From positions 25,546,001 through 25,610,000 of the forward strand of contig CM059432.1 of assembly GCA_030390025.1 (NCBI GenBank): a stretch of 64,000 nt of DNA. Reading direction: 5' to 3'. Below the pieces are notes generated by a model. That model made no database searches and had not been told where the DNA came from. It worked only from the letters and a program-made list of their open reading frames with translations. Every line of letters starts with the position of its first letter. Positions within the stretch are counted from its first letter, which is position 1. Shown here in pieces: positions 2,055 to 54,783 of the stretch. The position numbers and the translations under genes were made by a program. The DNA comes from Squalus acanthias. Taxonomy: Eukaryota.

Positions 2055-3244
2055 GAACATAGGAAACTGAGGAACATATTAACAGGAGTAGGCCATTCAG
2101 CCCTCAAGCCTCTTCCACCATTCAATTAGATCATGGCTGGTCTGTACCTCAATTCCATTTATCCATCTTTGCTCCCTTGATGCTCTTACCGAACAAAAAT
2201 CTATCTGAAAATTTCAATTGACTAAGCATCCACAGCTTTTGGGGGTACATATGTGTGAAAAACTCATCCCTGATTTCACTCTTAAATGGCCTAACTCTGA
2301 TTTTAAGATATAAAAATTGAAACGTTAACTCTGTTTCTCTCTCCACAGGTGCTGCATGGCTTGCTGAGTATTTCCAGCATTTTCTATTTTGATTTCTGAT
2401 TTGCAGCGTCCGCAGTATTTTGCTTTTCTAATTTTAAGATTGCACCCTCTTGTTCTGGATTCCCCCACCAGAGGAAATCGTTTCTCTGTATCTACCCTAT
2501 CAAATACCTTAATCATTTTAAACACCTCAATTAGCTCATCCAACAACCTTCTAAACGCAAGAGAATTAAACCAAGTTTATGCAACCTGTCCTCATAATTT
2601 AACCCTATAAGACCTGGTATAATTCTGCTGAGTCTGCGCTGTACCCCTTCCAAGGCCAATATATCTTTTTTCCACCTGTGCCCTAACTTTTAGGGATATG
2701 TGTACGAACACCTAAATCCCTTTGCTCCTCCACAGTTCCTAGTCTCCCAGTATTAAGAAAATAGTCTGATTTGTCTTTCTCGAATCCAAAGTATGACCTC
2801 ACACTTCCCCACATTGAACGTCATCTGCCACAGTTTTGCCAACTCAGTCTATTTATGTCCCATCTACACAACTTACTGCACCTTCTTACTTAGTGTCATC
2901 GGTAAAATTAATATGCAACTCTCTATTCCTTCATCAAAGTTATTAATGTATATGTTGAATAGCTGAGGCCCTCGTACAGATCTCTGAGGAAGACCAGTTG
3001 TCACATCCCCCAATCAGAGAATATTCCCTTTATTCCTACTCTCTGTCACCTACCTCCCAAACAGTTACCATAACACAAGGTTACTTCCAATTCTGTGTGC
3101 TTTCATTTTTGCTAATAATCTCTTGTGTGTATTCTTATCAAATGCCTTCTGAAAGTCCATATAAAGAACATCCATATGCACTTCCCCATCCACCATACCA
3201 GTGGCCTCATCAAAATATTCAACCAGATTAGTCAGACTTGACCT
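2055..3244 (-). mobile_element. Old degenerate CR1 LINE, 3' part; resumes at ~5468-5550 after a younger CR1 insertion
   Basis: Peptide remnants RPFKSEIRDEFFT, FPLVGESRTRGCNLKI and DVLYMDFQKAFDK; CR1-type 3' end near 2055-2150. Confidence 0.85.
2310..2426 (+). mobile_element. Mini Penelope terminal (pLTR) fragment carrying the 3' half of a hammerhead motif
   Basis: gaaacgttaactctgtttctctctccac...gctgagt.tttccagca matches the element at 26133-26140 + 29558-29624. Flanked by a 14-bp duplication tctgattttaagat (2296-2309) / tctaattttaagat (2427-2440). Confidence 0.75.
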
Positions 3245-5469
3245 CATAGAGTCATAGAGTTATACAGCCGTGTCTATTCTAATCCCATTTTCCAGCACTT
3301 GGTCCATAGCCTTGTATGCTATGGCGTTTCAAGTGCTCATCTAAATGCTTCTTGAATGTTGTGAGGGGTTCCTGCCTCTACCACCCTTTCAGGCAGTGAG
3401 TTCCAGATTCCAACCACCCTCTGGGTGAAAAAGTTTTTCCTCAAATCCCCTCTAAACCTCCTGCCCCTTACCTTGAAACTATGTCCCCTGGTTATTGACC
3501 CTTCTACTAAGGGGAAAAGTTCCTTTCTATACACCCTATCTATGCCCCTCATAATTTTGTACACCTCAATCAGGTCCCCCCTCAGCCTTCTTTGCTCTAA
3601 GGAAAACAACCCCAGCCTGTCCAGTCTCTCTTCATAGCTGAAGCGCTGCAGGCCAGGTAACATCCTGGTGAATCTCCTCTGCACCCTCTCCAATGCAATC
3701 ACATCCTTCCTATGGTGTGGCGACCAGAACTGCACACAGTATTCCAGCTGTGGCCTAACTAGCGTTTTGTACAGCTCCATCATAACCTCCCTGCTCTTAT
3801 ATTCTATGCCTCGGCTAATGAAGGCAAGTATCCCATATGCCTTTTTAACCACCTTATCTACCTGTCCTGCTGCCTTCAGGGATCTATGTACATGCACACC
3901 AAGGTCCCTCTGATCCTCCGTCCTTCCTAGGGTCCTACCATTCATTGTGTATTCCCTTGCCTTGTTAGTTCTCCCAAAATGCATCACCTCACACTTTTCA
4001 GGGTTAAATTCCATTTGCCACTGTTCTGCCCATCTAACCAACCCGTCTATATCATCCTGTAGCCTGAGGCTTCCCTCCTCGCTATTTACCACTCCACCAA
4101 TTTTTGTGTCATCTGCGAACTTACTGATTATACCTTCTACATTCATATCTAAATCATTAATGTACACTACAAACAGCAAAGGACCCAGCACCGATCCCTG
4201 CGGTACACCACTGGACACAGGCTTCCAGTCACAAAAACAACCTTCAACCATCACCCTCTGCCTCCTGCCACTAAGCCAATTTTGGATCCAATGTGCCAAA
4301 TTGCCCTGGATCCCATGGGCTCTTACCTTCTTGACCAGTCTCCCATGTGGGACTTTGTCAAAAGCCTTTCTGAAGTCATGTAGACTACATCAACCCTCAT
4401 CCATGCACCTAGTCACCCCCTCGAAAAATTCAATCAAATTGGTTAGACATGATCTCCCACTGACAAAGCCATGCTGACTATCCTTGATTAATCCTTGCCT
4501 CTCCAAGTGGAGACAATTCTGTCCCTCAGAATTTTTTCCAATAATTTCCCTACCACTGATGTTAGGCTCACTGGCCTGTAATTCCCTGGTTTATTCCTAC
4601 TACCCTTCTTGAATAATGCTACTACGTTAGCTGTTCTTCAGTCCCCTGGCACCTCCCCTGTGTTTAGAGAGGTTCTGAAAATTTGTGTCAGAGCCCCTGC
4701 AATCTCCTCCCTTGCCTCACACAGCAGCCTGGGATACATCTCGTCTGGGCCTGGGGATTTATCCACTTTTAAGCCCGCTAAAACCACTAGTACCTCCTCC
4801 CTCTCAATACTAATTTGTTCAATTATATCACAATCCCCCTGCCTGATTTCTATGCCTGCATCGTCCTTCTCCATAGTGAACACAGATACAAAATATTCAT
4901 TTAAAACCTCACCCACATCTTCCGGCTCTGCACACAGATTGCCAGTTTGGTCCCTAATGGGCCCTACTCTTTCCCTGGTTATCCTCTTGCCCTTAATATA
5001 CTTATAAAACACCTTGGGATGTTCCTTTATTTTGCCCGCCAGTCTTTTTTCATGCCCCCTCTTCGCTCTCCTAATTTCTTTTTTAAGTACTCCCCTGCAC
5101 TTTCTATACTCCTCTCGGGCTTCCATTGTTTTTAGTCCTTTGTATTTGCCAAAAGCCTCCCTTTTTTTTCCTAATCCATTCTTGTATATCCCTTGACATC
5201 CAGGGTTCCCTGGGCTTGTTGGTCCCACCCTTGACCTTTACGGGAACATGGTGGCGTTGTACTCTCTCTATTTCCTTTCTGAAAGACTCCCACTGCTTTG
5301 ATGTGGATTTTCCTACAAGTAGCTGATCCCAGTCCACTTTGGTCAGATCCTGCCTTATTGTATTAAAATCGGCCTTCCCCCAATTTAGAACCTTTATTTC
5401 TGGTCCATCTTTGTCCTTTTCCATGACTACCTTAAATCTCACCGAATTATGGTCACTGTCACCAAAATG
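3245..5469 (-). mobile_element. Young 5'-truncated CR1 LINE (ORF2 RT pseudogene) inserted into the older CR1
   Basis: ORFs 5104..5442, 4638..5228 and 3337..4299 (SGVPQGSVLGP, KFADDTK); (catagagt) tail at 3245; tgacct repeated at 3239-3244 and 5468-5473. Confidence 0.95.
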
Positions 5470-10420: not shown

Positions 10421-12333
10421 GGATCATCAGGGAAGCAATAAATCCAATTATACCAGTTAAGCATAGAGTAATGTAAGAGTAGCTTGGGCGGCAGGAGGGC
10501 AGTGAGCAACCAGGGAGGCCTTGAAAGTAGACCTCCAGCAGCAATACTTCAAAAATTATATGTAAGGAAAATGGTAACTTATGTACACTGTGTAAGGATG
10601 ATATTAGGTAAACCTGAGCATGGCTAGAGTCAAGGTGTATTTGTGCGTGTGTGTGTATATAAATATTGATAACAGGATCACTGCCTCTGACTGCACCCAA
10701 AGGCACACAATTATTTGTTTTGGCTTTAAAGAGTAAAAATCCATCTGCCAGAGTGCGAGAGAGAGGAGATATTTCTTCATTTCAGATTCTATTGTATTCA
10801 GAGAGCCTGGCTTATATTAAAAGCAGAGCTGTGGTAAGAGTTTCTATGTGCTAGTCCTCTGCATTTAATCTAAATCAGGCTGTCTGAACACAGTGCTTTG
10901 TAAAATGAAGAGTTTTCAAGTATCGTATATACTTGTGTATAAGGTGACCCCCAAACGTTACACTCAATAAACTTGAAAAATTTGTGACTCTTGTGTGAGA
11001 CGAGGGTTAACATTACAGAGCTATTATCCAACAAAATTCTCATCTTCATGTCAGCTTCCATCCACAAATGCATTTTCTCTGTTTCTCATTTCAACCTGAG
11101 CCTTCCTAGTCACTATTACTCAGTTCCTACAGTGCTATAATGTTTAAATGACAGCTCTCCCTCCGGACTTCAGTCTTGGCTTCTGTTGTTGTATCCTTTT
11201 CTGTACGTATCCAGCTGGGCTGTCTCCAATTTCAAGTCATCCGTGGAGGACCTGGACTGAACTCAAGTAGGAAAGTTGCTATTTAAGTATCCCAGTGCTG
11301 GAAGAGGAGAGCAACCCATTGACATCTGATAGGAACGCATTTCTATACTGTATTGTTTTTGGAGAAGCTACCTTATGATGAGGCAAGCCAGCCAGAAAGG
11401 AAGCGTGCAGAATATGAACTGTGTATAAGCTCACTCTCCACATTTTCCCTCAAACAAACATAACTTTCTAGTCTTATATACAAGTATATAGTCAGGTCAG
11501 TACGCAGCATTTAGAGTCGTGCTTGAAGGATGTAAGTACCAAGCAATGTAACACAAACCTTTTAGGACTTAGCGTCAGTATTATACCAGTCCTCTTTGTG
11601 GCCTCTGAGATTGAGGCTGCCAATTGCTGAAACTTATTGCCAATTTTGTGCTGTGATTTTGGGCTGCCTACTCTTTTTAAACCTTGATGATGTTTTCTAT
11701 AATGAGCTTTGATCTATTGCCAAGGTTTCTCAATCATAATTTTTTTTTTTACTCGCTTGTTTAAATAATGAACATTGTTGGTATCTTTGGAGCACCAATT
11801 GGAAGGAGCTACTGAGCTCAGCAGTGTGATCATACAGAGATAAAGTGAACTCCAGGCCATGGCTTTTCAAATCTGGACCCTGGATCCTGGAGGGTCCACT
11901 ATAGAATCCCAGGGGTCCTAAGACAGGTTATTAAATTATGATTGCCATCAGATTTCTATATCGTTCTGTATTTTTTGCCTTACTAGCCCATCACCTCTGT
12001 TGCTGTATACTAATAAAACAATTGTCTACAATGAGAGCACTGTTTTCCTTTAAATCACTCACAGCCTTTTGTTAATTAGGACAGTGGGTCTCCAGGATTT
12101 CGCCAATATTTTCTGATGCTCTTTATCTACTTCTGTAATTTTAGAGATCCCAAGAGCGTGGTAATATTTTCAGTAGATTACCAGGAGTGAGTTAATATAT
12201 TCAGGAATTCCTTGGGAATATGTTCATATTTTCAGGAGATCTCCAGGAGTCTATTTTTTTTCAGGACTCCCCAGGAGTTTAATATGTTCACAGATTCCCA
12301 GGGATGTATTGATACTTTCAGCGATCCCTAGGC

Positions 12334-14310
12334 GTGTGTTAATATTTTCAGGATTCTCTGGCAGTGTATTAATATTTTCAGGATTCTCTGGGAGTGTGTT
12401 AATATTTTCAGGATTCTCTGGGGGTGTGTTAATATTTACAGGATTCTCTGGGAGTGTGTTAATATTTTCAGGATTCTCTGGGAGTGTGTTAATATTTACA
12501 GGATTCTCTGGGAGTGTGTTAATATTTTCAGGATTCTCTGGGAGTGTGTTAATATTTACAGGATTCTCTGGGAGTGTATTAATATTTTCAGGATTCTCTG
12601 GGAGTGTGTTAATATTTCAGGATTCTCTGGGAGTGTGTTAACTATTTGGATTCTCTGGGAGTGTGTTAATATTTACAGGATTCTCTGGGAGTGTGTTAAT
12701 ATTTTCAGGATTCTCTGGGGGTGTGTTAATATTTACAGGATTCTCTGGGAGTGTGTTAATATTTACAGGATTCTCTGGGAGTGTGTTAATATTTTCAGGA
12801 TTCTCTGGCAGTGTATTAATATTTTCAGGATTCTCTGGGAGTGTGTTAATATTTACAGGATTCTCTGGGAGTGTGTTAATATTTACAGGATTCTCTGGGA
12901 GTGTGTTAATATTTTCAGGATTCTCTGGGAGTGTGTTAATATTTTCAGGATTCTCTGGCAGTGTATTAATATTTTCAGGATTCTCTGGGAGTGTGTTAAT
13001 ATTTTCAGGATTCTCTGGGAGTGTGTTAATATTTTCAGGATTCTCTGGGAGTGTGTTAATATTTACAGGATTCTCTGGGAGTGTGTTAATATTTTCAGGA
13101 TTCTCTGGGAGTGTGTTAATATTTACAGGATTCTCTGGGAGTGTGTTAATATTTTCAGGATTCTCTGGGAGTGTGTTAATATTTACAGGATTCTCTGGGA
13201 GTGTATTAATATTTTCAGGATTCTCTGGGAGTGTGTTAATATTTTCAGGATTCTCTGGGAGTGTGTTAATATTTTCAGGATTCTCTGGCAGTGTATTAAT
13301 ATTTTCAGGATTCTCTGGGAGTGTGTTAATATTTTCAGGATTCTCTGGGGGTGTGTTAATATTTACAGGATTCTCTGGGAGTGTGTTAATATTTTCAGGA
13401 TTCTCTGGGAGTGTGTTAATATTTTCAGGATTCTCTGGGAGTGTGTTAATATTTACAGGATTCTCTGGGAGTGTGTTAATATTTACAGGATTCTCTGGGA
13501 GTGTGTTAATATTTTCAGGATTCTCTGGGAGTGTGTTAATATTTACAGGATTCTCTGGGGGTGTGTTAATATTTACAGGATTCTCTGGGAGTGTGTTAAT
13601 ATTTACAGGATTCTCTGGGAGTGTGTTAATATTTTCAGGATTCTCTGGGAGTGTGTTAATATTTTCAGGATTCTCTGGCAGTGTATTAATATTTTCAGGA
13701 TTCTCTGGGAGTGTGTTAATATTTACAGGATTCTCTGGGAGTGTGTTAATATTTTCAGGATTCTCTGGGAGTGTGTTAACATTTACAGGATTCTCTAGGA
13801 GTGTGTTCATATTTTCAGGTTTCTCTGGGAGTGCGTTAATATTTTCAGGATTCTCTGGGAGTGTGTTAATATTTTCAGGATTCTCTGGGAGTGTGTTAAT
13901 ATTTTCAGGATTCTCTGGGAGTGTATTAATATTTTCAGGATTCTCTGGGAGTGTGTTAATATTTTCAGGATTCTCTGGGAGTGTGTTAATATTTTCAGGA
14001 TTCTCTGGCAGTGTATTAATATTTTCAGGATTCTCTGGGAGTGTGTTAATATTTACAGGATTCTCTGGGAGTGTGTTAATATTTTCAGGATTCTCTGGGA
14101 GTGTGTTAACATTTACAGGATTCTCTAGGAGTGTGTTCATATTTTCAGGTTTCTCTGGGAGTGTGTTAATATTTTTGGGGTTCTCTGGGAGTGTGTTAAT
14201 ATTTTCAGGATTCTCTGGGAGTGTGTTAATATTTTTTGGGTTCTCTGGGAGTGTGTTAATATTGTCAGGATTCTCTGGGAGTGTGTTAATATTTTTGGGA
14301 TTCTCTGGGA
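12334..14310. repeat. 30-bp minisatellite, ~66 copies, with degenerate units extending left to ~12090
   Basis: Unit gtgtgttaatatt(t/a)caggattctctggga-like repeated head to tail with no unique spacers. Confidence 0.99.
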
Positions 14311-14427
14311 CTGTTAATATGATTACACTTGCAGACAGAACAGAAGTGTTTTGCAAAACGGGCACCTAATCTGTGTTTAATGTTTCCAGTGTGATTGTAC
14401 CATGAACATTAGATACATTATACTAGA

Positions 14428-17212
14428 TTATCACAGAGACATGGTTGAGGGAGGGGCAGGACTAGCAGCTCAATATTCCGGGGTATAGACTATTCAGGCG
14501 AGACAGAGGGGGGTGTAAAAGAGGAGGGGGTGTCTCAATATTAATCAAGGAGTCAATTACTGCTGTAAGGAGGGATGATATCTTAGCAGGTTCCTCTAAT
14601 GAGGCCATATGGGTAGAACTTAAAAACAAAAAGGGGGCAAGCACATTGCTGGGAGTGTACCATAGGCCCCCAAACAGTCAGGGGGAGATAGAGGAACAGA
14701 TATGTAGGCAAATCTCAGAGAAGTGTAGAAATAATAGGGTAATAATTATAGGGGATTTCAACTTCGCCAATATTAACTGGGATAGTCAGAGTGTGAAAGG
14801 CTTAGAGGGTGCGGAATTCTTAAAGTGCATCCAGGAGAGCTTTTTGAGCCAGCATGCAGAAAGTCCTACAAGAGAGGGAGCGGTACTGGACCTAATTCTA
14901 GGGAATGTAGCCAGGCAAGTGGTAGAAGTGTCAGTAGGAGAGCATTTTGGTGACAGTGACCATAATTCGGTGAGATTTAAGGTAGTCATGGAAAAGGACA
15001 AAGATGGACCGGAAATAAAGGTTCTAAATTGGGGGAAGGCCGATTTTAATATGATAAGGCAGGATCTGGCCAAAGTAAACTGGGATCAGCTACTTGTAGG
15101 AAAATCCACATCAGAGCAATGGGAGTCTTTCAGAAAGGAAATAGAGAGAGTACAACACCAACATGTTCCCGTAAAGGTCAAGGGTGGGACCAACAAGCCG
15201 GGGGAACCCTGGATGTCAAGGGATATACGAGAATGGATTAGGAAAAAAAGGGAGGCTTTTGGCAGATACAAAGGACTAAAAACAGTGGAAGCCCTGGATG
15301 AGTATAGAAAGTGCAGGGGGGTACTTAAAAAAGAAATTAGGAGAGCGAAGACGGGGCATGAAAAAAGACTGGCGGGCAAAATAAAGGAAAATCCCAAGGT
15401 GTTTTATTAGTATATTAAGGGCAAGAGGATAACCAGGGAAAGAGTAGGGCCCATTAGGGACCAAAGTGGTAATCTGTGTGTAGAGCCGGAAGATGTAGGT
15501 GAGGTTTTAAATGAATATTTTGCATCTGTGTTCACTATGGAGAAGGACGATGTAGGCATAGAAATCAGGCAGGGGAATTGTGATATACTTGAACAAATTA
15601 GTATTGAGAGGGAGGCGGTACTAGCGGTTTTAGCGGGCTTAAATGTGGATAAATCCCCAGGCCCAGATGAGATGTATTCCAGGCTGCTGTGTGAGGCAAG
15701 GGAGGAGATTGCAGGGGCTCTGACACAAATTTTCAGAACCTCTCTAAACACAGGGGAGGTGCCAGGGGACTGAAGAACAGCTAACGTAGTAGCATTATTC
15801 AAGAAGGGTAGTAGGAATAAACCAGGGAATTACAGGCCAGTGAGCCTAACATCAGTGGTAGGGAAATTATTGGAAAAAATTCTGAGGGACAGAATTAGTC
15901 TCCACTTGGAGAGGCAAGGATTAATCAAGGATAGTCAGCATGGCTTTGTCAGGGGGAGATCATGTCTAACCAATTTGATTGAATTTTTCGAGGGGGTGAC
16001 TAGGTGTGTGGATGAGGGTAATGCAGTTGATGTAGTCTACTTGGACTTCAGAAAGGGTTTTGACAAAGTCCCACTTGGGAAACTGGTCAGGAAGCTAAGA
16101 GCCCATGGGATCCAGGGCAATTTGGCACATTGGATCCAAAATTGGCTTAGTGGCAGGAGGCAGAGGGTGATGGTCAAAGGTTGTTTTTGTGACTGGGAGC
16201 CTGTGTCCAGTGGTGTACCGCAGGGATCGGTGCTGGGTCCTTTGCTGTTTGTAGTGTACATTAATGATTTAGATATGAATGTAGGAGGTATGATCAGCAA
16301 GTTCGCAGATGACACGAAAATTGGTGGAGTGGTAAATAGCGAGGAGGGAAGCCTCAGGGTACAGGACGATATAGACGGGTTGGTTAGATGGGCAGAACAG
16401 TGGCAAATGGGATTTAACCCTGAAAAGTGTGAGGTGATGCATTTTGGGAGGACGAACAAGGCAAGGGAATACACAGTGAATGTTAGGACCCTAGGAAGGA
16501 CAGAGGATCAGAGGGACCTTGGTGTGCATGTACATAGATCCCTGAAGGCAGCAGGACAGGTAGATGAGGTGGTTAAAAAGGCATATGGGATACTTGCCTT
16601 CATTAGCTGAGGCATAGAATATAAGAGCAGGGAGGTTATGATGGAGCTGTACAAAATGGTAGTTAGGCCACAGCTGGAATACTGTGTGCAGTTCTGGTCG
16701 CCACACTAGAGGAAGGAAGTGATTGCATTGGAGAGGGTGCAGAGGAGATTCACCAGGATGTTACCTGGGCTGGAGCGCTTCAGCTATGAAGAGAGACTGG
16801 ACAGGCTGGGATTGTTTTCCTTAGAGCAGAGAAGGCTGAGGGGGGACCTGATTGAGGTGTACAAAATTATGAGGGGCATAGATAGGGTGTATAGAAAGGA
16901 ACTTTTCCCCTTAGTAGAGGGGTCAATAACCAGGGGACATAGTTTCAAGGTAAGGGGCAGGAGGTTTAGAGGGGATTTGAGGAAAAACTTTTCACCCAGA
17001 GGGTGGTTGGAATCTGGAACTCACTGCCTGAAAGGGTGGTAGAGGCAGGAACCCTCACAACATTCAAGAAGCATTTCGATGAGCACTTGAAACGCCATAG
17101 CGTACAAGGCTACAGACCAAGTGCTGGAAAATGGGATTAGAATAGACACGGCTTGATGGTCGGCGCGGACACGATGGGCCGAAGGGCCTCTTTCTGTGCT
17201 GTATAACTCTAT
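14428..17212 (+). mobile_element. 5'-truncated CR1 LINE (APE-RT ORF2 pseudogene), same family as 3245..5469
   Basis: ORFs 14646..15410 (GVYHRPP, GDFN, SDHN), 15528..15773, 15840..16610 (RT) and 16719..17042. The tail ctat|gactctat is split by a MITE. Confidence 0.97.
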
Positions 17213-26140: not shown

Positions 26141-28280
26141 GGGATTGATTGTAATAGCCCTGAGGAGGCAGGTTTGGAGGCGGGTCTGTTGGGAAAATCG
26201 GGAAATATGGCTTCAGACATCCAACCCACCTCCATCCCGCCCCCACCCGATTTTCCTGAGTGTCTGTTCAGCCGCTCCCAAACTGACCCGTCTCCAACCG
26301 GTGGGACAGGTAGTTAAGGCAGTTAACAGCCTGTTAACTGCCTTGCTAATCCTATTTTCATAGTGGTTTCCCATTTTCCTGCTTCTGGCTCCTGTTTCCC
26401 GACTTGTCAGAAACAGTCCAGGTTCAAGGAGACGAGTTGCTGGAGGGCATAATTTGTATGCATTGGTGGAGCACATTAAAAGCGCCCCTGAAACATGGCT
26501 GACATTCAAATACAACAACTTTGCAGTTGTAGGTATGGGATAAGATTTTGCACATCTACTGACCTTGTGACTGTTCATGCTGACACCCATCTGCAGTGTG
26601 TCATGAATGGAAACATTTCAGGCCACTTCCACTGTACACTTGCAAGATTGTTACCTCAAATGAAATCTATAGCAAGGGGATGGGAAACATTTATGCCCTC
26701 TCATCCTGGTCCTCATAATTGGGGGAGTAGCAGCCGCATGGCTCACCACAGATCTTCCTGGGAAGAGGAGTAGGAGGAGGAGGAGGGGAGCCTTGCATGC
26801 CCTGTTGTGACCAATGTAGCATCCCTCCAGTTCACTGCTGCCCGTCAACCAGGATATGTACACTGCCATGCCACACTACCATAAGCTTACTCTTCGACCA
26901 TAGGTGGCCACCATATGGCTCTGTAATTGCAGGTGACACTTGTCCAATGTCATACTTCATCACTTTTACCATCAGCATTACAAATGCAAGTCACCCTGAG
27001 CCCTCAATGCGCTTTTGCCATTTCCCAGAACACATAGGCCACACAATCAACTGTTTGACATAATTTATCTTTAACACGTGACAAAATATACCAGCAAGAG
27101 TCAGAAAAAAAAGAAACATCACCCAAGTGGGTCTCCTTGTGAGTTTAGGTGCTTAATCTTTCTCTTACGCGTGCTTCTACGTGGTGCTTCCCCTGTGGCT
27201 TCAGCAGATGTAGAGGCACCTTGCTGACTAGGATGCTGCGCTTACTTAGACACCTTTGGCAGGCGTCCTCTGGGTTTGGGAGCCTGGGAGGGCTCTTCAA
27301 CAGTTTGCTCTTCCTGCGGCTGTGCAGGGGCTGAAATGGCCATCTCAGTTGTCTCTGCAAAGTGGGTCTCTGAGCGAGGGCTCTGCAGTGACATGGTCGT
27401 GTGAGCGCTTTGAGAGGAGCCCACAATTCCTTCTGTCCTGCCAACAACATCCCTCTCATGGGTCAACCACACCTCAGTGCTGGCAAGTGGCAGGAGAACA
27501 CCTTACTGCACTTCAGGGGGGACCATGAGGACCCGTATCCGCACTGGCAGTCCTCCTCAAAAGGACATCCATGAAGCTCTGGTCTCTCTGCTCAATAGCT
27601 GCCCATCGCTCCTCCAGAGATGTCATTCTATTCTGAACAGTCACCATGTTTTCCTGACTCTGGCAACTTATTTCCTCCATGGCCGTAGCTATCCTTTCCA
27701 CTGAGGTAGCCATCCTATCCATGGTGGTGCGTTCATGCGCCATTGCCTCCACCACGGCAATGCTGATGTTAGAGATGGACTCCTCCATTCTCCCCACACT
27801 CGCTCTAACTCTGGAGGCAAACCCTTCCAGAGACACCTGAACTTGTTCCTGTATTTCCCGAGACGCTCTTTTTCTGGATGGTCCCAGAGGCACAGCATCT
27901 GCATTCAGCTCAGCAGAGCTAGGAGAGTCCTGCGACCTCCACAGAGGACTCTCCACTGCTGTCGCTGTCTCCACCATCTGCTGATGCTCACTTGTGCGCT
28001 GTGATATACCAGGTGGCAACACTACTCGAACTCACGATGGCCCCACCGAGGTGTGCGTTGCTGCACTGGTGCTGGGTGCGCTGTGTCCTGGTGACGCTAG
28101 TCCCTCAGAGGCTTCAGGTTCCTCTGAGGAGATGTCCGGCTCTTCGTCCTGGATCGTGGGGAGGGGGGCACTCGATGGTCCTGTGGGAGAGTAAAGGCTT
28201 GAATTAGACATCTGATATTGATGTAGCAAAAATGAGAGGTCGCACAACACCAGGTTATAGTCCAACAGTTTTATTTGAAA

Positions 28281-28317
28281 TTATGAGCTTTCGGAGCGCT
28301 GCTCCTTCGTCAGGTAA
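28281..28317 (-). ncRNA. Minimal type I hammerhead motif (core intact)
   Basis: Minus strand TTAC-CTGACGA-A-GGAGC-AGC-GCTCC-GAAA-GC-TC-ATAA; one mismatch in stem I. Confidence 0.75.
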
Positions 28318-28320
28318 AGT

Positions 28321-28357
28321 TTACCTGAAGAAGGAGCAGAGCTCCAAAAGCTCGTAA
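28321..28357 (+). ncRNA. Minimal hammerhead motif with GAAA changed to AAAA (probably inactive)
   Basis: TTAC-CTGAAGA-A-GGAGC-AGA-GCTCC-AAAA-GC-TC-GTAA; stem I TTAC/GTAA. Confidence 0.65.
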
Positions 28358-30032
28358 TTTCAAATAAAACTGTTGGACTATAACCTGGTGTTGTGCGACT
28401 TCTCATTTTTGTCCACCCCAGTCCAACACCAGCATCTCCGCATCATTGATGTAGCAGACACATCCTTTTGAGCAGATGATACAAAGCGATTCTCTGTGAA
28501 CATCATATTCCATTGCTTTCTGAGAGGGATGAAACTCTATTATGTCACCAGCTTCCTCTTGTGTGCCCGTCTCTCCATCGCCCACTTTCCTGTCCTCGCC
28601 ACTGCCAACAATCTCGTTTGCTGCCTCCTCAGCACTGGTCAATGTTGCAAGGGTAGGTGTTCCTCCTCCAGTCAGTGCTCTCTCCCTCTTATTGTGGGCT
28701 ATCATTTCCTGCAAGGAGGGACACAAGTGGTGTTTCAGCCACAGTGATGGAGTGAGTGTGATTAACCCCTACCATAGAAGCATTGAGTGAGACGAAGATG
28801 GGGTAAGGTGCCAAGAGGCAGGTAGCTCCCTGCGCGTTGTTAGTTGTTGCCACTGCATGACAGTGACAGCGAGTCTAAGGGGTGCATAGGCAGGATGCTG
28901 AAGTGATTCAGTGCAGAGACAGAGATAGATAGGAAAGGGTGCAAGGGAAGTAAGAGTAAGGTGGGATGTGAAGGAGGAGGCTTACAACGCAGAGTGCTGG
29001 TGATGAGAAGAGAAGGGATGCAGAGTGAAGGCAAGTGAGATGTGATACTCACTTTTGATGTTCTCACAAGATCATTAACCTTTTTGCGGCACTGCATCCA
29101 AGACAGTGCATAAATGGACCTTGCGCTGACCTCCTGAGCAATGCACAGCCAGGCTGCCTTGGTCTGCTGAGGAGGCTTTCTCCAGCCGTCCGGAGGGAAG
29201 GGAATCTCCCTGTACCCTCTGACAGCATCCAAAAGAACTTGGAGGAACTCATCATTAAAACAAGGAGCTGCCTTGCCTCTGGAAGAAGTCATTGCTTTTA
29301 AAAGAAGTGCAGGAAACCACAATAGAAAGGCTCAGGCTGGATGACAACTTTAAAAGCAGCTGCTATTATGACGTCATCAGAGGCAGCCAGCCGACCCGAT
29401 CCCACTCATTGGACGAGCCAGCGCACCTCCATGAAATTAACAAGGTACTTTAATAAAAATTGCAACTCTGCAGCTGTTCCTGCCGGAAGCGGCTCCCGAA
29501 CCCGCCCACCACGCAACCCGACTCCAACCCGCCTCGGGAATTAAAATCGAGCCCGTTAACTCTGTTTCTCTCTCCACGATGCTGCCTGACCTGCTGAGTG
29601 TTTCCAGCAGTTTCTGTTGTTGTATCTTATGACAGAGACTTGCATTTATATAGTGACCTCAGTACGTCCCAGAGCGCTTTACGGCCAATGACGTATGCTA
29701 GAAAATAGATAAGTTTTTATATTGTTTTAATACAGAACGAAGACAGAACAGCTAATGGAGGCAGAATTGGTTTAAACTGTATGCTTGCAGATCTGATCTT
29801 TTGATCACAATGACACTGAGATAACATTGGAGAAGGATGAAACTTTAGGCAATGGGACAGGCTACTGACAAGGATATGCCCCTATGGTTGTGCGTGTTCA
29901 GCAATCTGTTTAACGGCCGAAGCTGCCCAACAAAATTAAACTCAGCAAGAATTAGACAATGTATGATTGTTTTTTAATATTTTATAAAGGAGGAACACAA
30001 AGCAAAACTCAGTTAGGAATTTTAGTTACCTT

Positions 30033-47027: not shown

Positions 47028-48646
47028 TACTTAAAATCATTTAACTGCAGACACAACACCAGTAAATGGGAGAGTCTCATCCCGTGTCCCACACACTGGG
47101 CAAGTTGCCCCCTCCACTCGTTCAATCTTACATAAGACCATCATGGTAAAAATCCGGTTATGAGCCAATTTGAAATCCAGTTCAATCCACTCTGGACATT
47201 TAAAATTCGCCCATACTTCCTTCCAAATCCTGTTGAAGTCCAGCTGTGGGTATATACTCTGCCAAAACTCCTGACCAGCAGGTGTCTTGAATCTCCATTC
47301 TCTAAACACCTCATAGAAATCTCGAGTATTACAGTTGTCAAATTGGACCAACTCTCCCCCTTTCTCCAGCAGAAAGCTTGGAAAAGCGGGACGCATTTTA
47401 CTTCCTTTGGAGATTTCCGCATTTATTTCTTCCATCCAATCCTGTGGCATTGCCCTCACAATCTTCTCATACATGATCCCTATTGCTTTTTCCTCTACCT
47501 CCTGATCCTCCTCCCACACCATGTCCCTCACCATCGCTTCCGGCAACCAACCTGGAATTACCTTATATAACACATCTTTCACACATATAATACCAGCTTT
47601 TATAAAAGCTTGATTAAATAATACCTCTCCTTCAATGTTGACTCACCTGTTCAAAAATAAGGGCTGTTCTAAAAATTCCTCAGCCCCCTTGGGCATAAAC
47701 TGCACACTTTTTAAAAATTGGGCCCAAGTCTCTACAACCCCCTTATAAAACCTAGGGAGAAGTTTAATTGATTTCAAAAGCATATTATTGTATTCCATAT
47801 ACAATATCCCCTGCCCTCCTATCCCACTTCATTTTTAAAAATGCTCAAAACAACTCTTCCAAAAACTTGTATTTGACTTCTGAAGAAATCTCTTCACCCA
47901 TTTGATTCTAAAGGATTTTTTCTTCAAATCAATATCTGGGAAATTGAGTCCTCCCTGATTTCTCCATCCAATGATGGTATTGTAAGCCACCAAGGCTGGT
48001 TTCCCTTCCCATAAAAATCTGACACAAGCCTCTCGGATGGACTTTTCTGCCCACTCAGGAATATCCTCCACCGTCAATAAGTACCATAGCTTAGATAGCA
48101 GGAGAGCGGACACCACTGTCGCTCTTCAATGCACTTACAACCACCTCCTTTCCCATCTTCCCAAAATCTTTTTAATTTTCATAACCTTTGGTTCCCAATT
48201 TAATCGATCCACTTCCTCCCTGTCTTTCTTGCACCCCATATGCACCCCCAGAACTTCCAAAACCTCCACCACCTTAAAGGGACTTTCCTCCAACCATTCC
48301 CCCCATATCCCTTCCTGCAACCAGGCATTGGGACGTACTATAATTCACTCTGGCTCCTGAAGCTCTACAATACTCCTCCACTACATCCATAGCTTTCTTC
48401 ACTGACTCCCCATTTCTCAACGTTAAGGTTGAGTCATCTGCATATTGGTGTATCACTGACACCAGCCCAGAACTGGGAACCGCAATCCCAACTACACCTT
48501 GTTTCTTTCGCATCATGTAACCTAATGGTTCTGCTACCAATGTGTACAACAATGGGCATGATGCGGAGATGCCGGTGTTGGACTGGGGTGGACAAAATTG
48601 AGAGGTCGCACAACACCAGGTTATAGTCCAACAGTTTTATTTGAAA

Positions 48647-48689
48647 TCACAAGCTTTCGGAGCTATCGATTTGCTCCTTCCTCAGGTGA
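48647..48689 (-). ncRNA. Minimal type I hammerhead motif
   Basis: Mirror image of 49706..49748. Confidence 0.8.
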
Positions 48690-49705
48690 AGTAAATTAGA
48701 TACAGAATCTCCAAAGCATATATAGCTGGAAAACAAAGCATGTGTACTTTACAATTGCAGACCAATAAATTAAATCATCCTGACTATCTGCCGAGGTGTG
48801 ATAAAGTTAATTAAGTCAGCCAGGAAGGTACCACATCAAAGACATAGCAAGATACAACTGAGACAATGAGGTGTAGTCGCAGGGGTTCTAACGTGTCAAA
48901 AGCTGCCGTCTGTATGTAAAACGAAAAGCTTTAACATTTTTTTACTTTTTTACTGGGAAAATTTTTACTTTTTTACTGGGAATCACATCTGTGAACAAGC
49001 TAACGACGACTCGAGTCCGGATCACGTCATGTATCGTGACATAAACCCAAGATCCCGATTGAGACCGTCTTTATGAGTGCGGAACTTGGCTATCAGTTTC
49101 TGCTCGATGATTTTGCGTTGTCGTGTGTTTCTAAGGTTGCCTTGGAGAACGCTTACCCGCAGATCCGAGGCTGAATGTCCTTGACTGCTGAAGTCAAGGA
49201 CATTCAGCAGTCAAGGACATTCAGCCTCGGATCTGCGGGTAAGCGTTCTCCAAGGCAACCTTAGAAACACACGACAACGCAAAATCATCGAGCAGAAACT
49301 GATAGCCAAGTTCCGCACTCATGAAGACGGTCTCAATCGGGATCTTGGGTTTATGTCACGATACATGACGTGATCCGGACTCGAGTCGTCGTTAGCTTGT
49401 TCACAGATGTGATTCCCAGTAAAAAAGTAAAAATTTTCCCAGTAAAAAAGTAAAAAAATGTTAAAGCTTTTCGTTTTACATACAGACGGCAGCTTTTGAC
49501 ACGTTAGAACCCCTGCGACTACACCTCATTGTCTCAGTTGTATCTTGCTATGTCTTTGATGTGGTACCTTCCTGGCTGACTTAATTAACTTTATCACACC
49601 TCGGCAGATAGTCAGGATGATTTAATTTATTGGTCTGCAATTGTAAAGTACACATGCTTTGTTTTCCAGCTATATATGCTTTGGAGATTCTGTATCTAAT
49701 TTACT

Positions 49706-49748
49706 TCACCTGAGGAAGGAGCAAATCGATAGCTCCGAAAGCTTGTGA
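49706..49748 (+). ncRNA. Minimal type I hammerhead motif
   Basis: TCAC-CTGAGGA-A-GGAGC-AAATCGATA-GCTCC-GAAA-GC-TT-GTGA: stem I TCAC/GTGA, stem II GGAGC/GCTCC, palindromic AAGCTT in place of stem III. Confidence 0.8.
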
Positions 49749-50803
49749 TTTCAAATAAAACTGTTGGACTATAACCTGGTGTTGTGCGACCTCTCAATTT
49801 TGTACAACAATGGGGACAGGGGACAACCCTGTCTCACTGACCTCTGTATCAGAAAATACTTGGATAAAAACCATTACATTTAACACAGCTAAATATGTTT
49901 GAATAAAAAATCCTTATCCACTAAATGAAATTTCCCCCCAAAACCAAATGCTTCCAAAACCTTCAATAAAAACTCATGAGAGACCCTATCAAAGGCTTTC
50001 TCTTGATCTATCTTTAATACATAAGCCTCCCTCCCACTCTCTTCCATGAGCTCTATCGCATCTCGGATTGAGACCACAGAGTCTGCGATGTCCCGGCCTA
50101 TGACTCCATAGGACTGAGAGGGCAAAACTAGCTGCGGCAACACCTCCTCTATACGATTTGCCATAACCCTCGCCAAGATCTTATAATCCACATTTAATAA
50201 TGTGATGGGTCTCCAATTCTTCAGATCCCTTCTATCCCCTTTATTTTTATAAGCTAAGCTTATGACACCTCTTCTCATAGATGGGGCCAGGCTTCCCTCA
50301 TTTTTAATTTCCTTAAAAACTCCTAAGAGCAATGGACTTAAAATCTCGAAAAATTCTTTGTAAAATTCTGCACTTAGTCCATCGGACCCTGGGCTTTCCC
50401 CCCCCGCTTCATTCCACTTATTGCTACTTTTATTTCCGCTAATCCTACTTCTTTGTCACACATGCTTCTCTCATCCACCTTTAAACCCTCTTCAATAAAA
50501 GCACTAACCTTCTCCATCACCAAATTGGAAATGTCTTCTTTTGTATATAACTCTTGATAAAAGCTGCTAGCCGCCTCTAAAATGTTCCCACTTTCATGAA
50601 TGATCTTCTCCCCAACCTTCAACTCTCCAATTAATGATAATCTCTGTCGCAGCTTCTCTTGCTGTAGAAAATATCTAGTGCATCTAGAACATAGAACAGT
50701 ACAGCACAGTACAGGCCCTTCGGCCCTCGATGTTGTGCCGAGCATTGTCCGAGACCAAGACCAAGCTATCCCACTCCCTATCATTCTGGTGTGCTCCATG
50801 TGC

Positions 50804-53652: not shown

Positions 53653-54579
53653 TTAGTTTAAACCCCCCCGAAGAGCCGTAGCAAATTTCCCTCCCAGGAT
53701 ATTGGTGCCCCTCTGGTTCAGGTGCAAACCGTCCTGTTTGTACAGGTCCCACCTTCCCCAGAATGTGCTCCAATTATCCACATAACTGAAACCCTCCCCG
53801 CTACACCATCCCTGCAGCCACGTGTTTATCTGCACTCTCTCCCTGTTCCTCAACTCGCTAGCACGTGGCACCGGCAACAAACCAGAGATTACAACATGGT
53901 TTGTACTGGCTCTCAGCTTCCAACCTAGCTCCCTAAATTCCTGTTTTAAATCCCCGTCCCTTCTCCTACCTATGTCGTTGGTACCGATGTGTACCACGAC
54001 TTGTGATTGTTTCCCCTCCCCCTTGAGGATTCTGGAAACACGGTCCGAGACTTCACGGACCCTGGCACCCGGGAGGCAACATACCATCCGTGAGTCTCTT
54101 TTGCTGCCACAGAACCTCCTATCTGTCCCTCTGACTATTGAGTCCCCAATAACTATTGCTCTCCTGCTCTCCCCCCTTCCCTTCTGAGCCACAGGGACGG
54201 ACTCAGCGCCGGAGATCCGGTCAACGTGGCTTACCACTGGTAGGTCGTCCCCCTCAACAGTATCCAAAGTGGTATACTTGTTACTGAGGGGAACGACCAC
54301 AGAGGATCCCTGCACTGACTGCTTCCTCCTAGCCCCTCTCACCGTCACCCATCTATCTTCATTCTTTGGAGTAACTACATCCCTGAAGCTTCTATCTATG
54401 ACCACCTCTGCCTCCCGAATGATCCGAAGTTCATCCAGCTCCAGCTCCAGTTCCCTAACGCGGTTTTCGAGGAGCTGGAGATGGGTGCACTTCCCACAGG
54501 TGTAATCAGCAGGGACACCGACGGCGTCCCTCACCTCAAACATTCTGCAGGAGGAACATTTCACTGCCTCCCCTGCCAT
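53653..54579 (-). CDS. CR1 ORF1 protein (CxxC...CxxC zinc finger, coiled coil, SGNH/GDSL esterase-like domain)
   Basis: 308 aa with CSSC...CGKC, LENRVRELELELDEL, IGDSIVR, HIGTND and DGLHLN. Confidence 0.9.
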   Translation of the reverse strand: MAGEAVKCSSCRMFEVRDAVGVPADYTCGKCTHLQLLENRVRELELELDELRIIREAEVVIDRSFRDVVTPKNEDRWVTVRGARRKQSVQGSSVVVPLSNKYTTLDTVEGDDLPVVSHVDRISGAESVPVAQKGRGESRRAIVIGDSIVRGTDRRFCGSKRDSRMVCCLPGARVREVSDRVSRILKGEGKQSQVVVHIGTNDIGRRRDGDLKQEFRELGWKLRASTNHVVISGLLPVPRASELRNRERVQINTWLQGWCSGEGFSYVDNWSTFWGRWDLYKQDGLHLNQRGTNILGGKFATALRGGLN

Positions 54580-54783
54580 CCCCCCCAGCTAACTTGCGGA
54601 TTAAACTAGAACAAGAAAGAGCTTACCTGATATTCACTCACCCCCTTTAGGTTAGAGGAGGTGGAAGGGTGGGGGACACTACAAGTGTAGTGTCTCGGGT
54701 TTAGGAACCGCCCAACTTATATATAGGTAAAAATTAATCACCTACCCAGCAACCACTGCGTCCCGCACTATAAAAGCACTCAA

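Follow-up and report, generated by a model that had tools for sequence, protein, structure and literature searches.

A head-to-head Penelope-like element insertion in Squalus acanthias and the ends, arms and target sites of its family

The palindrome and its host site

The window, a stretch of 64,000 nucleotides of the Squalus acanthias genome (contig CM059432.1), was analyzed computationally, and the features of the palindromic locus within it were displayed in Table 1. The palindromic insertion at 48543-49814 was almost certainly real. This 1.2-kb unit is interpreted as a single recent insertion, 5'-truncated and head-to-head, from a young family of Neptune-type Penelope-like elements (PLEs), located inside a LINE.

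Table 1. Features of the palindromic insertion and of its host LINE (window coordinates)
Feature	Position	Strand	Remark
Target duplication, left copy	48543..48556	+	Exact repeat of 14 nt; stagger fits best as 12 bp (48545-48556), within TG-N16-CA target
PLE tail, 35 nt	48557..48591	-	One end only; terminates at the ATG with which the ORF of tandem copies begins
Left (tailed) arm, 601 bp	48592..49192	-	3' end of 5'-truncated element
Left-arm minimal type I hammerhead motif	48647..48689	-	Mirrors 49706-49748
Left-arm endonuclease domain, last 55 codons	49028..49192	-	Contains the sole arm-to-arm difference (E to K)
Centre junction	49192..49225	+	17-nt tandem duplication including the 10-nt "spacer" 49193-49202; unique in genome
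Right (tail-less) arm, 601 bp	49203..49803	+	Final 3 nt overlap target repeat
Right-arm endonuclease domain, last 55 codons and stop	49203..49370	+	Conserved E and N present; without GIY/YIG
Right-arm minimal type I hammerhead motif	49706..49748	+	Sequence motif, predicted cut after 49744
Private variant	49669	+	Common to both arms; 0 of 120 fetched loci
Target duplication, right copy	49801..49814	+	Best-fit 49803-49814
Host LINE reverse-transcriptase frame, post-insertion part	48301..48555	-	RVT_1, E 3.4e-5
Host LINE reverse-transcriptase frame, pre-insertion part	49892..50098	-	RVT_1, E 3e-8

As stated in the original prediction, the two inverted arms of 601 bp matched without any gap and with a single mismatch (49072/49323), and the 35-nt tail was confirmed at one end only, on the left side. 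An extension of 3 nt past a second mismatch (48591/49804) gave an alternative arm length of 604 nt. The proposed 14-bp target site duplication (TSD) was recovered as an exact 14-nt repeat on both sides, a length reached in 2 of 2991 random window pairs, but the true stagger was probably 12 bp. The right repeat copy began with 3 nt that also belonged to the element. The mirror symmetry ended at the element ends, and the flank was excluded from it. After removal of the insert and one repeat copy, the two host reverse transcriptase (RT) fragments shared one frame, and the host flanks matched Pfam RVT_1 consecutively, from profile position 49 to 102 and then from 127 to 187. In the contigs of four public runs, neither cover at 49196-49199 nor a piece bridging either outer junction with 31 letters on each side was found; such contigs drop words of this kind, and the insertion may be polymorphic.

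The 10-bp spacer reported at the centre of the palindrome did correspond to 10 nt between the arms, but these proved to be half of a perfect 17-nt tandem duplication. With the duplicated bases in place, the focal centre adopts a DNA hairpin fold, and we infer that it was produced by a copy of about 15 nt primed by 2 bp, followed by realignment on a 6-nt repeat. Among the family events described below, microhomology of at least 2 nt was present at 17 of the 27 centre junctions that were free of insertions, compared with 15% by chance, and the other 25 centre junctions carried extra bases or differences from the reference. Two other identities of the locus were rejected. The match to the miRNA precursor mir-10 in Rfam (37.4 bits) was below the gathering score of 47.5 and arose from the hairpin centre, and a MITE was not consistent with centres that varied between family events or with a 17-nt duplication junction that occurred once in the genome.

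Elsewhere in the window, two LINE copies about 97% alike were arranged in inverted orientation at 3266-5469 and 14943-17153 (RVT_1 matches), and a 30-bp tandem array of 72 copies with long open frames was located between them at 12154-14314. A GDSL esterase frame was also detected upstream of RT frames at 53656-54588 (minus strand). GDSL esterase occurs in ORF1 of some CR1/L2-type LINEs.

The element family and its hammerhead motifs

The 55-aa arm frame was adopted as a protein query against the genome, and 150 of 26,223 candidates were scored. At least 150 matches, all on one contig, were 100% identical to the query; the 150 matches were grouped into 121 clusters and 120 loci were fetched, six of which contained an open frame of 920-921 codons. 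The 892-aa ORF of the intact family copy L084 matched RVT_1 (E 1.4e-8), and its C-terminal GIY-YIG match (E 1.6e-4, 22.3 bits) was slightly below the cut-off of 22.6. In 14 aligned proteins, the CX4CxxC linker between RT and endonuclease (C34, C39 and C42) and the CCHH motif of the endonuclease (C77, C81, H101 and H117) were invariant, and the R, E and N of the endonuclease were also invariant in the family proteins. The combination of RT, CX4CxxC linker and C, C, H, H, R, E and N residues resembled the Neptune/Nematis-type PLEs, and a CX2-5CxxC linker is described as a mark of Neptune and Nematis, not of Penelope/Poseidon (PMC8557442). By its linker and CCHH motifs, the family is provisionally classified as a Neptune-type EN+ PLE, and a Poseidon-type label was ruled out by the presence of the CX4CxxC linker.

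The Penelope identity that had been proposed was supported, and so were the inverted ends, the tail, the target duplication and the minimal type I hammerhead. The GIY-YIG C-terminal frame proposed for each arm was upheld as far as its 55 aa were 100% identical to the C-terminus of the intact ORFs, but it started downstream of the GIY/YIG motifs and by itself gave no relevant Pfam match. Full-length copies followed a truncated 3' end, equivalent to a tandem pLTR, at seven loci (L037, L081, L084, L099, L109, L113 and L130), and in such tandem copies the tail terminated at the ATG of the next unit. Homologous proteins were detected in shark, turtle, urchin and tick, the closest named ones being from shark (82-91%), which points to a cartilaginous fish as host, and the endonuclease gave no match to PDB sequences at E<=1. 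Pieces of the endonuclease were annotated within the shark host-gene isoforms septin 5a, XRCC5, PPP1R12A and USP8 (P0008, P0014, P0017, P0020 and P0027), which would represent either exonisation or annotation error.

The CUGAnGA..GAAA motif expected in each arm was found as CUGAGGA..GAAA on each strand, and the expected cleavage position agreed with that in Table 1. In the right arm, stem I was formed by 49706-09/49745-48, the core by 49710-16, stem II by 49718-22/49732-36 and GAAA by 49737-40. The assignment to minimal type I hammerheads was consistent with the sequence features of PLE hammerheads (PMC4209133), including CUGANGA, GAAA..UH, an extra nucleotide after A9, G10.1-C11.1, a palindromic 15.2-16.2 and a 4-bp stem I. 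The Rfam hammerhead search, which had been recommended, gave no match at E<=5 over 3.5 kb or at E<=10 over 121 nt. Among 36 distinct copies, 98.1% of the stem cells were paired, one stem I pair was C-G in 24 copies and U-A in 12, and the changes in stem II preserved pairing; this covariation depends on one compensating pair, which may go back to a single inherited event, and most of the copies had been selected because their core was intact. Of 198 copies, 193 had an intact core, as did all 117 young ones, therefore its intactness was nothing special at the focal locus.

Forcing the hammerhead fold cost 74.8 kcal/mol in the full transcript, compared with 4.5 kcal/mol in one arm and 0.9 kcal/mol in the isolated motif. 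In read-through from either direction the antisense arm comes before the sense hammerhead, which is then paired base for base, so that a self-cleaving hairpin is unlikely. The suggested dsRNA hairpin was retained in part: if transcribed, it is predicted to be 98% paired, but the penalty above makes its self-cleavage improbable. Minimal hammerheads need a same-sense dimer, the monomer being without activity (PMC4209133), and two motifs on opposite strands cannot supply it. Folding of the hammerhead motif would be possible for a transcript initiated within one arm, at the modelled cost of a single arm. The double hammerhead was evaluated at -21.7 kcal/mol and the best dimer at -33.3 kcal/mol in predicted folds; a 6-nt palindrome in loop II (49723-49731) lets two copies pair, and the resulting dimer is predicted to be stabler than the double hammerhead. 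Dual hammerhead motifs on opposite strands have been reported at distances of 100-700 bp (PMC4209133), whereas the focal motifs, known as sequence, lie 1.0 kb apart in a perfect hairpin. For the anole PLE, hammerhead cleavage is described as requiring protein and as dispensable for insertion in vitro (PMC11167929). The hammerheads appear to be passengers of the terminal repeat and not to serve a function of the palindrome.

Inverted insertions across the family and their target

A natural copy of 3144 nt (L109) was used as the reference of a census, in which 123 events with at least 94% identity were counted on one contig; a few of these events were bystanders in the fetched stretches, and L149, without a match at that identity, was uncounted. 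The rarity implied by the original prediction was not borne out, as a head-to-head junction was found in 52 of the 123 sampled events, a fraction which is approximate because copies that extend at least as far as the focal breakpoint are favoured by the sampling and each two-armed event is hit twice. Among 41 clean two-arm events, 39 had one tailed and one tail-less end, two had two tail-less ends and none had two tails, and a duplication of 12-14 bp was present in 36. The 3' end of the 64 simple events was tail-less in 49, tailed in 12 and broken in 3. Tail-less ends were located at reference 3095-3108 and tailed ends at 3136-3155, some tailed ends passing the ATG by up to 11 nt. Target microhomology of at least 2 nt was observed at 27 of 37 tail-less ends and 19 of 37 tailed ends. 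Two of the 64 simple events carried an abortive, inverted stub of the tail, 10-11 nt long, at their 5' junction.

The longer arm was the tail-less one in 23 of 39 events and the tailed one in 11, with equal arms in 5; the surplus of longer tail-less arms was not significant by itself (p 0.058). Arm lengths agreed within 10 nt in 6 of 46 events compared with 0.8 expected (permutation, p 0.0002) and within 40 nt in 10 of 46 compared with 2.7 expected, and the focal copy was a member of this symmetric minority. In 37 events, the two arms of one event differed by 0.20% when symmetric (15/7543) and by 0.38% when asymmetric (71/18627), against 1.3-2.0% between events. Many asymmetric arm pairs had no mismatch at all, and no relation between asymmetry and arm divergence was found (Spearman -0.15, p 0.37, n 37).

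Loop-free perfect palindromes with a TSD were also observed at L126:772-5796, L137 and L062, with arms of up to 2.5 kb, and the arms at L126 contained one mismatch in 2482 bp. Palindromes with such arms are unusually long for a vertebrate genome. In older mini-insertions, seen as bystanders at L033, L042, L079, L094, L113 and L143, the arms ended at reference 2985-3063, scattered around the hammerhead (reference 3012-3054) with no single fixed point. The window itself contained an older mini-palindrome of the same superfamily at 28215-28458, 86-89% identical to the young copy, with a 12-bp TSD and one tail; its arms met just before the hammerhead, and its target fitted TG-N16-CA.

The target was determined from events with an 11-15-bp duplication, near-identical sites being counted once. 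TG-N16-CA was present at 28 of 35 distinct inverted sites and at 13 of 18 distinct simple sites, compared with a background of about 4%; because the inverted sites served to derive the motif, only the simple sites test it out of sample. The aligned sites suggested CTGNC-N12-GNCAG with a middle of 70% AT. TG-N16-CA was found in two of six older bystander events (only seven such events were found). The rebuilt empty site of the focal insertion fitted TG-N16-CA as 2+12+2 nt. A 12-bp stagger is therefore the preferred reading, with the additional matching bases attributed to microhomology. By a motif-based count, 22 of the 123 insertions, with differing truncation points, occurred at apparently one site of one abundant host repeat, presumably CR1-like, which is a strong hot spot (L054, L061, L064-L066, L069-L071, L080-L082, L086, L091, L092, L094, L099-L102, L127, L128 and L139).

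Origin of the inverted ends

The focal insertion was probably made by two-sided copying of one RNA from nicks about 12 bp apart in a mirror-symmetric target. The element enzyme, possibly acting as a dimer, would nick both strands of such a target, and the same RNA would be copied from each nick; the two copies would begin at different points, the tail end and a site some 35-40 nt further in. Both cDNAs would halt at nearly one point, owing to an RNA break or a joint stall. Their 3' ends may then be joined via two short microhomology-primed steps, leaving the 17-nt duplication, and host repair would complete the insertion. The tail-less end is regarded as a priming site because it was the usual 3' end of simple insertions (49/64). 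The low divergence between the arms of one event and their shared private variant point to one RNA, or to gene conversion. The positions of the tail-less and tailed ends agreed with the two internal start sites of the anole PLE, which in vitro cleaves and extends both strands from start sites that bound the tail, and for which a dimer is predicted (PMC11167929).

Self-priming has been proposed for such junctions (PMC3846280). In a fold-back of this type, a tail-primed cDNA snaps back and copies itself to the tail-less site, and the asymmetric members are derived by later central deletion. We consider this account unlikely for the focal insertion, even though the over-representation of equal arms is explained more simply by it, and zero-loop palindromes with 0.7- and 2.5-kb arms (L062 and L126), as well as the hairpin-type templated bases at the focal centre, are in its favour. 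Long palindromes do undergo central deletion, as in mouse transgene work. However, the second strand would have to stop exactly at the priming site of simple insertions, deletions would be required in most events, yet asymmetry was unrelated to arm divergence and many asymmetric pairs were mismatch-free, and the abortive tail stubs are not predicted. Fold-back of a tailed cDNA cannot yield a longer tail-less arm, and a tail-less cDNA offers no template for the tail; two RNA-templated starts are therefore required for most events, barring later trimming. This argument rests on the existence of longer tail-less arms, not on their surplus. The focal symmetric copy alone cannot separate two-sided priming from fold-back, and the preference rests on the family, the data of which speak more for cDNA synthesis primed at both nicks by a dimeric enzyme than for single-strand fold-back.

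It is very unlikely that the palindrome is a working source of dsRNA or small RNA with hammerhead self-cleavage. The predicted read-through hairpin is 98% paired on either strand, the hammerhead stems covary across the family, and rotifer Penelope copies yield small RNAs (PMC3846280), but the hammerhead fold is costly within the hairpin, and the two motifs, being on opposite strands, are unable to form a dimer within a single transcript. Moreover, the focal copy had no sign of selection, its intact core being shared by all 117 young copies, and of 15 long frames tested in the window, the nine with a Pfam match were all retroelement-type. More improbable still is a fold-back artefact of assembly or library, which a near-perfect palindrome could suggest; it is contradicted by symmetry limited to the element, by the target duplication and the continuous host frame, by tail asymmetry and end positions that obey the family rule, by a target fitting TG-N16-CA, and by the older, diverged example (86-89% identical to the young copy) within the same window. 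As a separate observation, a lone tail in direct orientation preceded a tail-less copy on its 5' side (L061:1856-1888), and neither two-sided priming nor fold-back explains it without a template jump or circular RNA.

Extended from the focal insertion to the family, the data lean slightly towards a Neptune-type PLE that integrates as a symmetric dimer. It would recognise a two-part dyad (about CTGNC-N12-GNCAG, with TG-N16-CA as its core), cut it at positions 12 bp apart and start cDNA synthesis at each of the two nicks, on one RNA, from opposite boundaries of the tail. In LINE-1 twin priming, a single RNA is primed by the two target strands, which produces an inversion with microhomology; the second-strand priming occurs far inside the L1 RNA and gives non-overlapping segments. 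Unlike LINE-1, the focal family is proposed to prime both strands at the 3' end, which duplicates the same sequence. Support in vitro comes from the PAc Poseidon element of Anolis (PMC11167929), the reported preference of which is ATT and not a dyad. Both have two start sites that bound the tail, but extension of both strands was obtained directly for PAc, whereas for the focal family, which is of another clade (Neptune-type), it is proposed from sequence. The RNA of PAc continues past the tail into the ORF, as it does in the focal family, where ends lie up to 11 nt past the ATG; the focal ORF starts at the tail end and not, as in PAc, in the hammerhead. ATT cleavage is reported in PMC11167929, and inverted insertions and TSDs are not discussed in its accessible text.

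The head-to-head PLE layout itself is already published (PMC3846280, PMC8557442), and a general scheme of inverted pLTR insertions for EN+ PLEs is given in PMC8557442. Pen2a_Av and Pen2_Av (PMC3846280) resemble the focal copy in a head-to-head inverted, 5'-truncated structure, a tail of 30-40 nt at one end, a TSD, insertion into a non-LTR element and a palindromic junction. Differently from these, both focal arms measure 601 bp and meet at a templated duplication of 17 nt, and the focal family is abundant enough for statistics, with a dyad target being seen. This target, TG-N16-CA, contrasts with the microsatellites reported for Naiad, Hydra and Chlamys (PMC8557442). In the openly accessible literature searched, neither a dyad PLE target nor a model that explains inverted PLE copies by two-sided priming was found.

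The single focal palindrome is an ordinary footprint; the value lies in its family, which is young, retains intact ORFs and shows numerous fresh insertions. The formation of inverted ends and tails in PLEs is called still undefined in PMC8557442, and the family offers a defined substrate for the inverted-end question, with a TG-N16-CA target, a 12-bp stagger and two start sites. If the symmetric-dimer reading is true, one mechanism would account for inverted pLTRs, the one-sided tail and the narrow range of TSD length, and a retrotransposon would have a palindromic target like that of a transposase. Perfect palindromes as long as about 5 kb continue to arise in the genome, with consequences for assembly, for spurious miRNA and MITE calls and possibly for genome stability.
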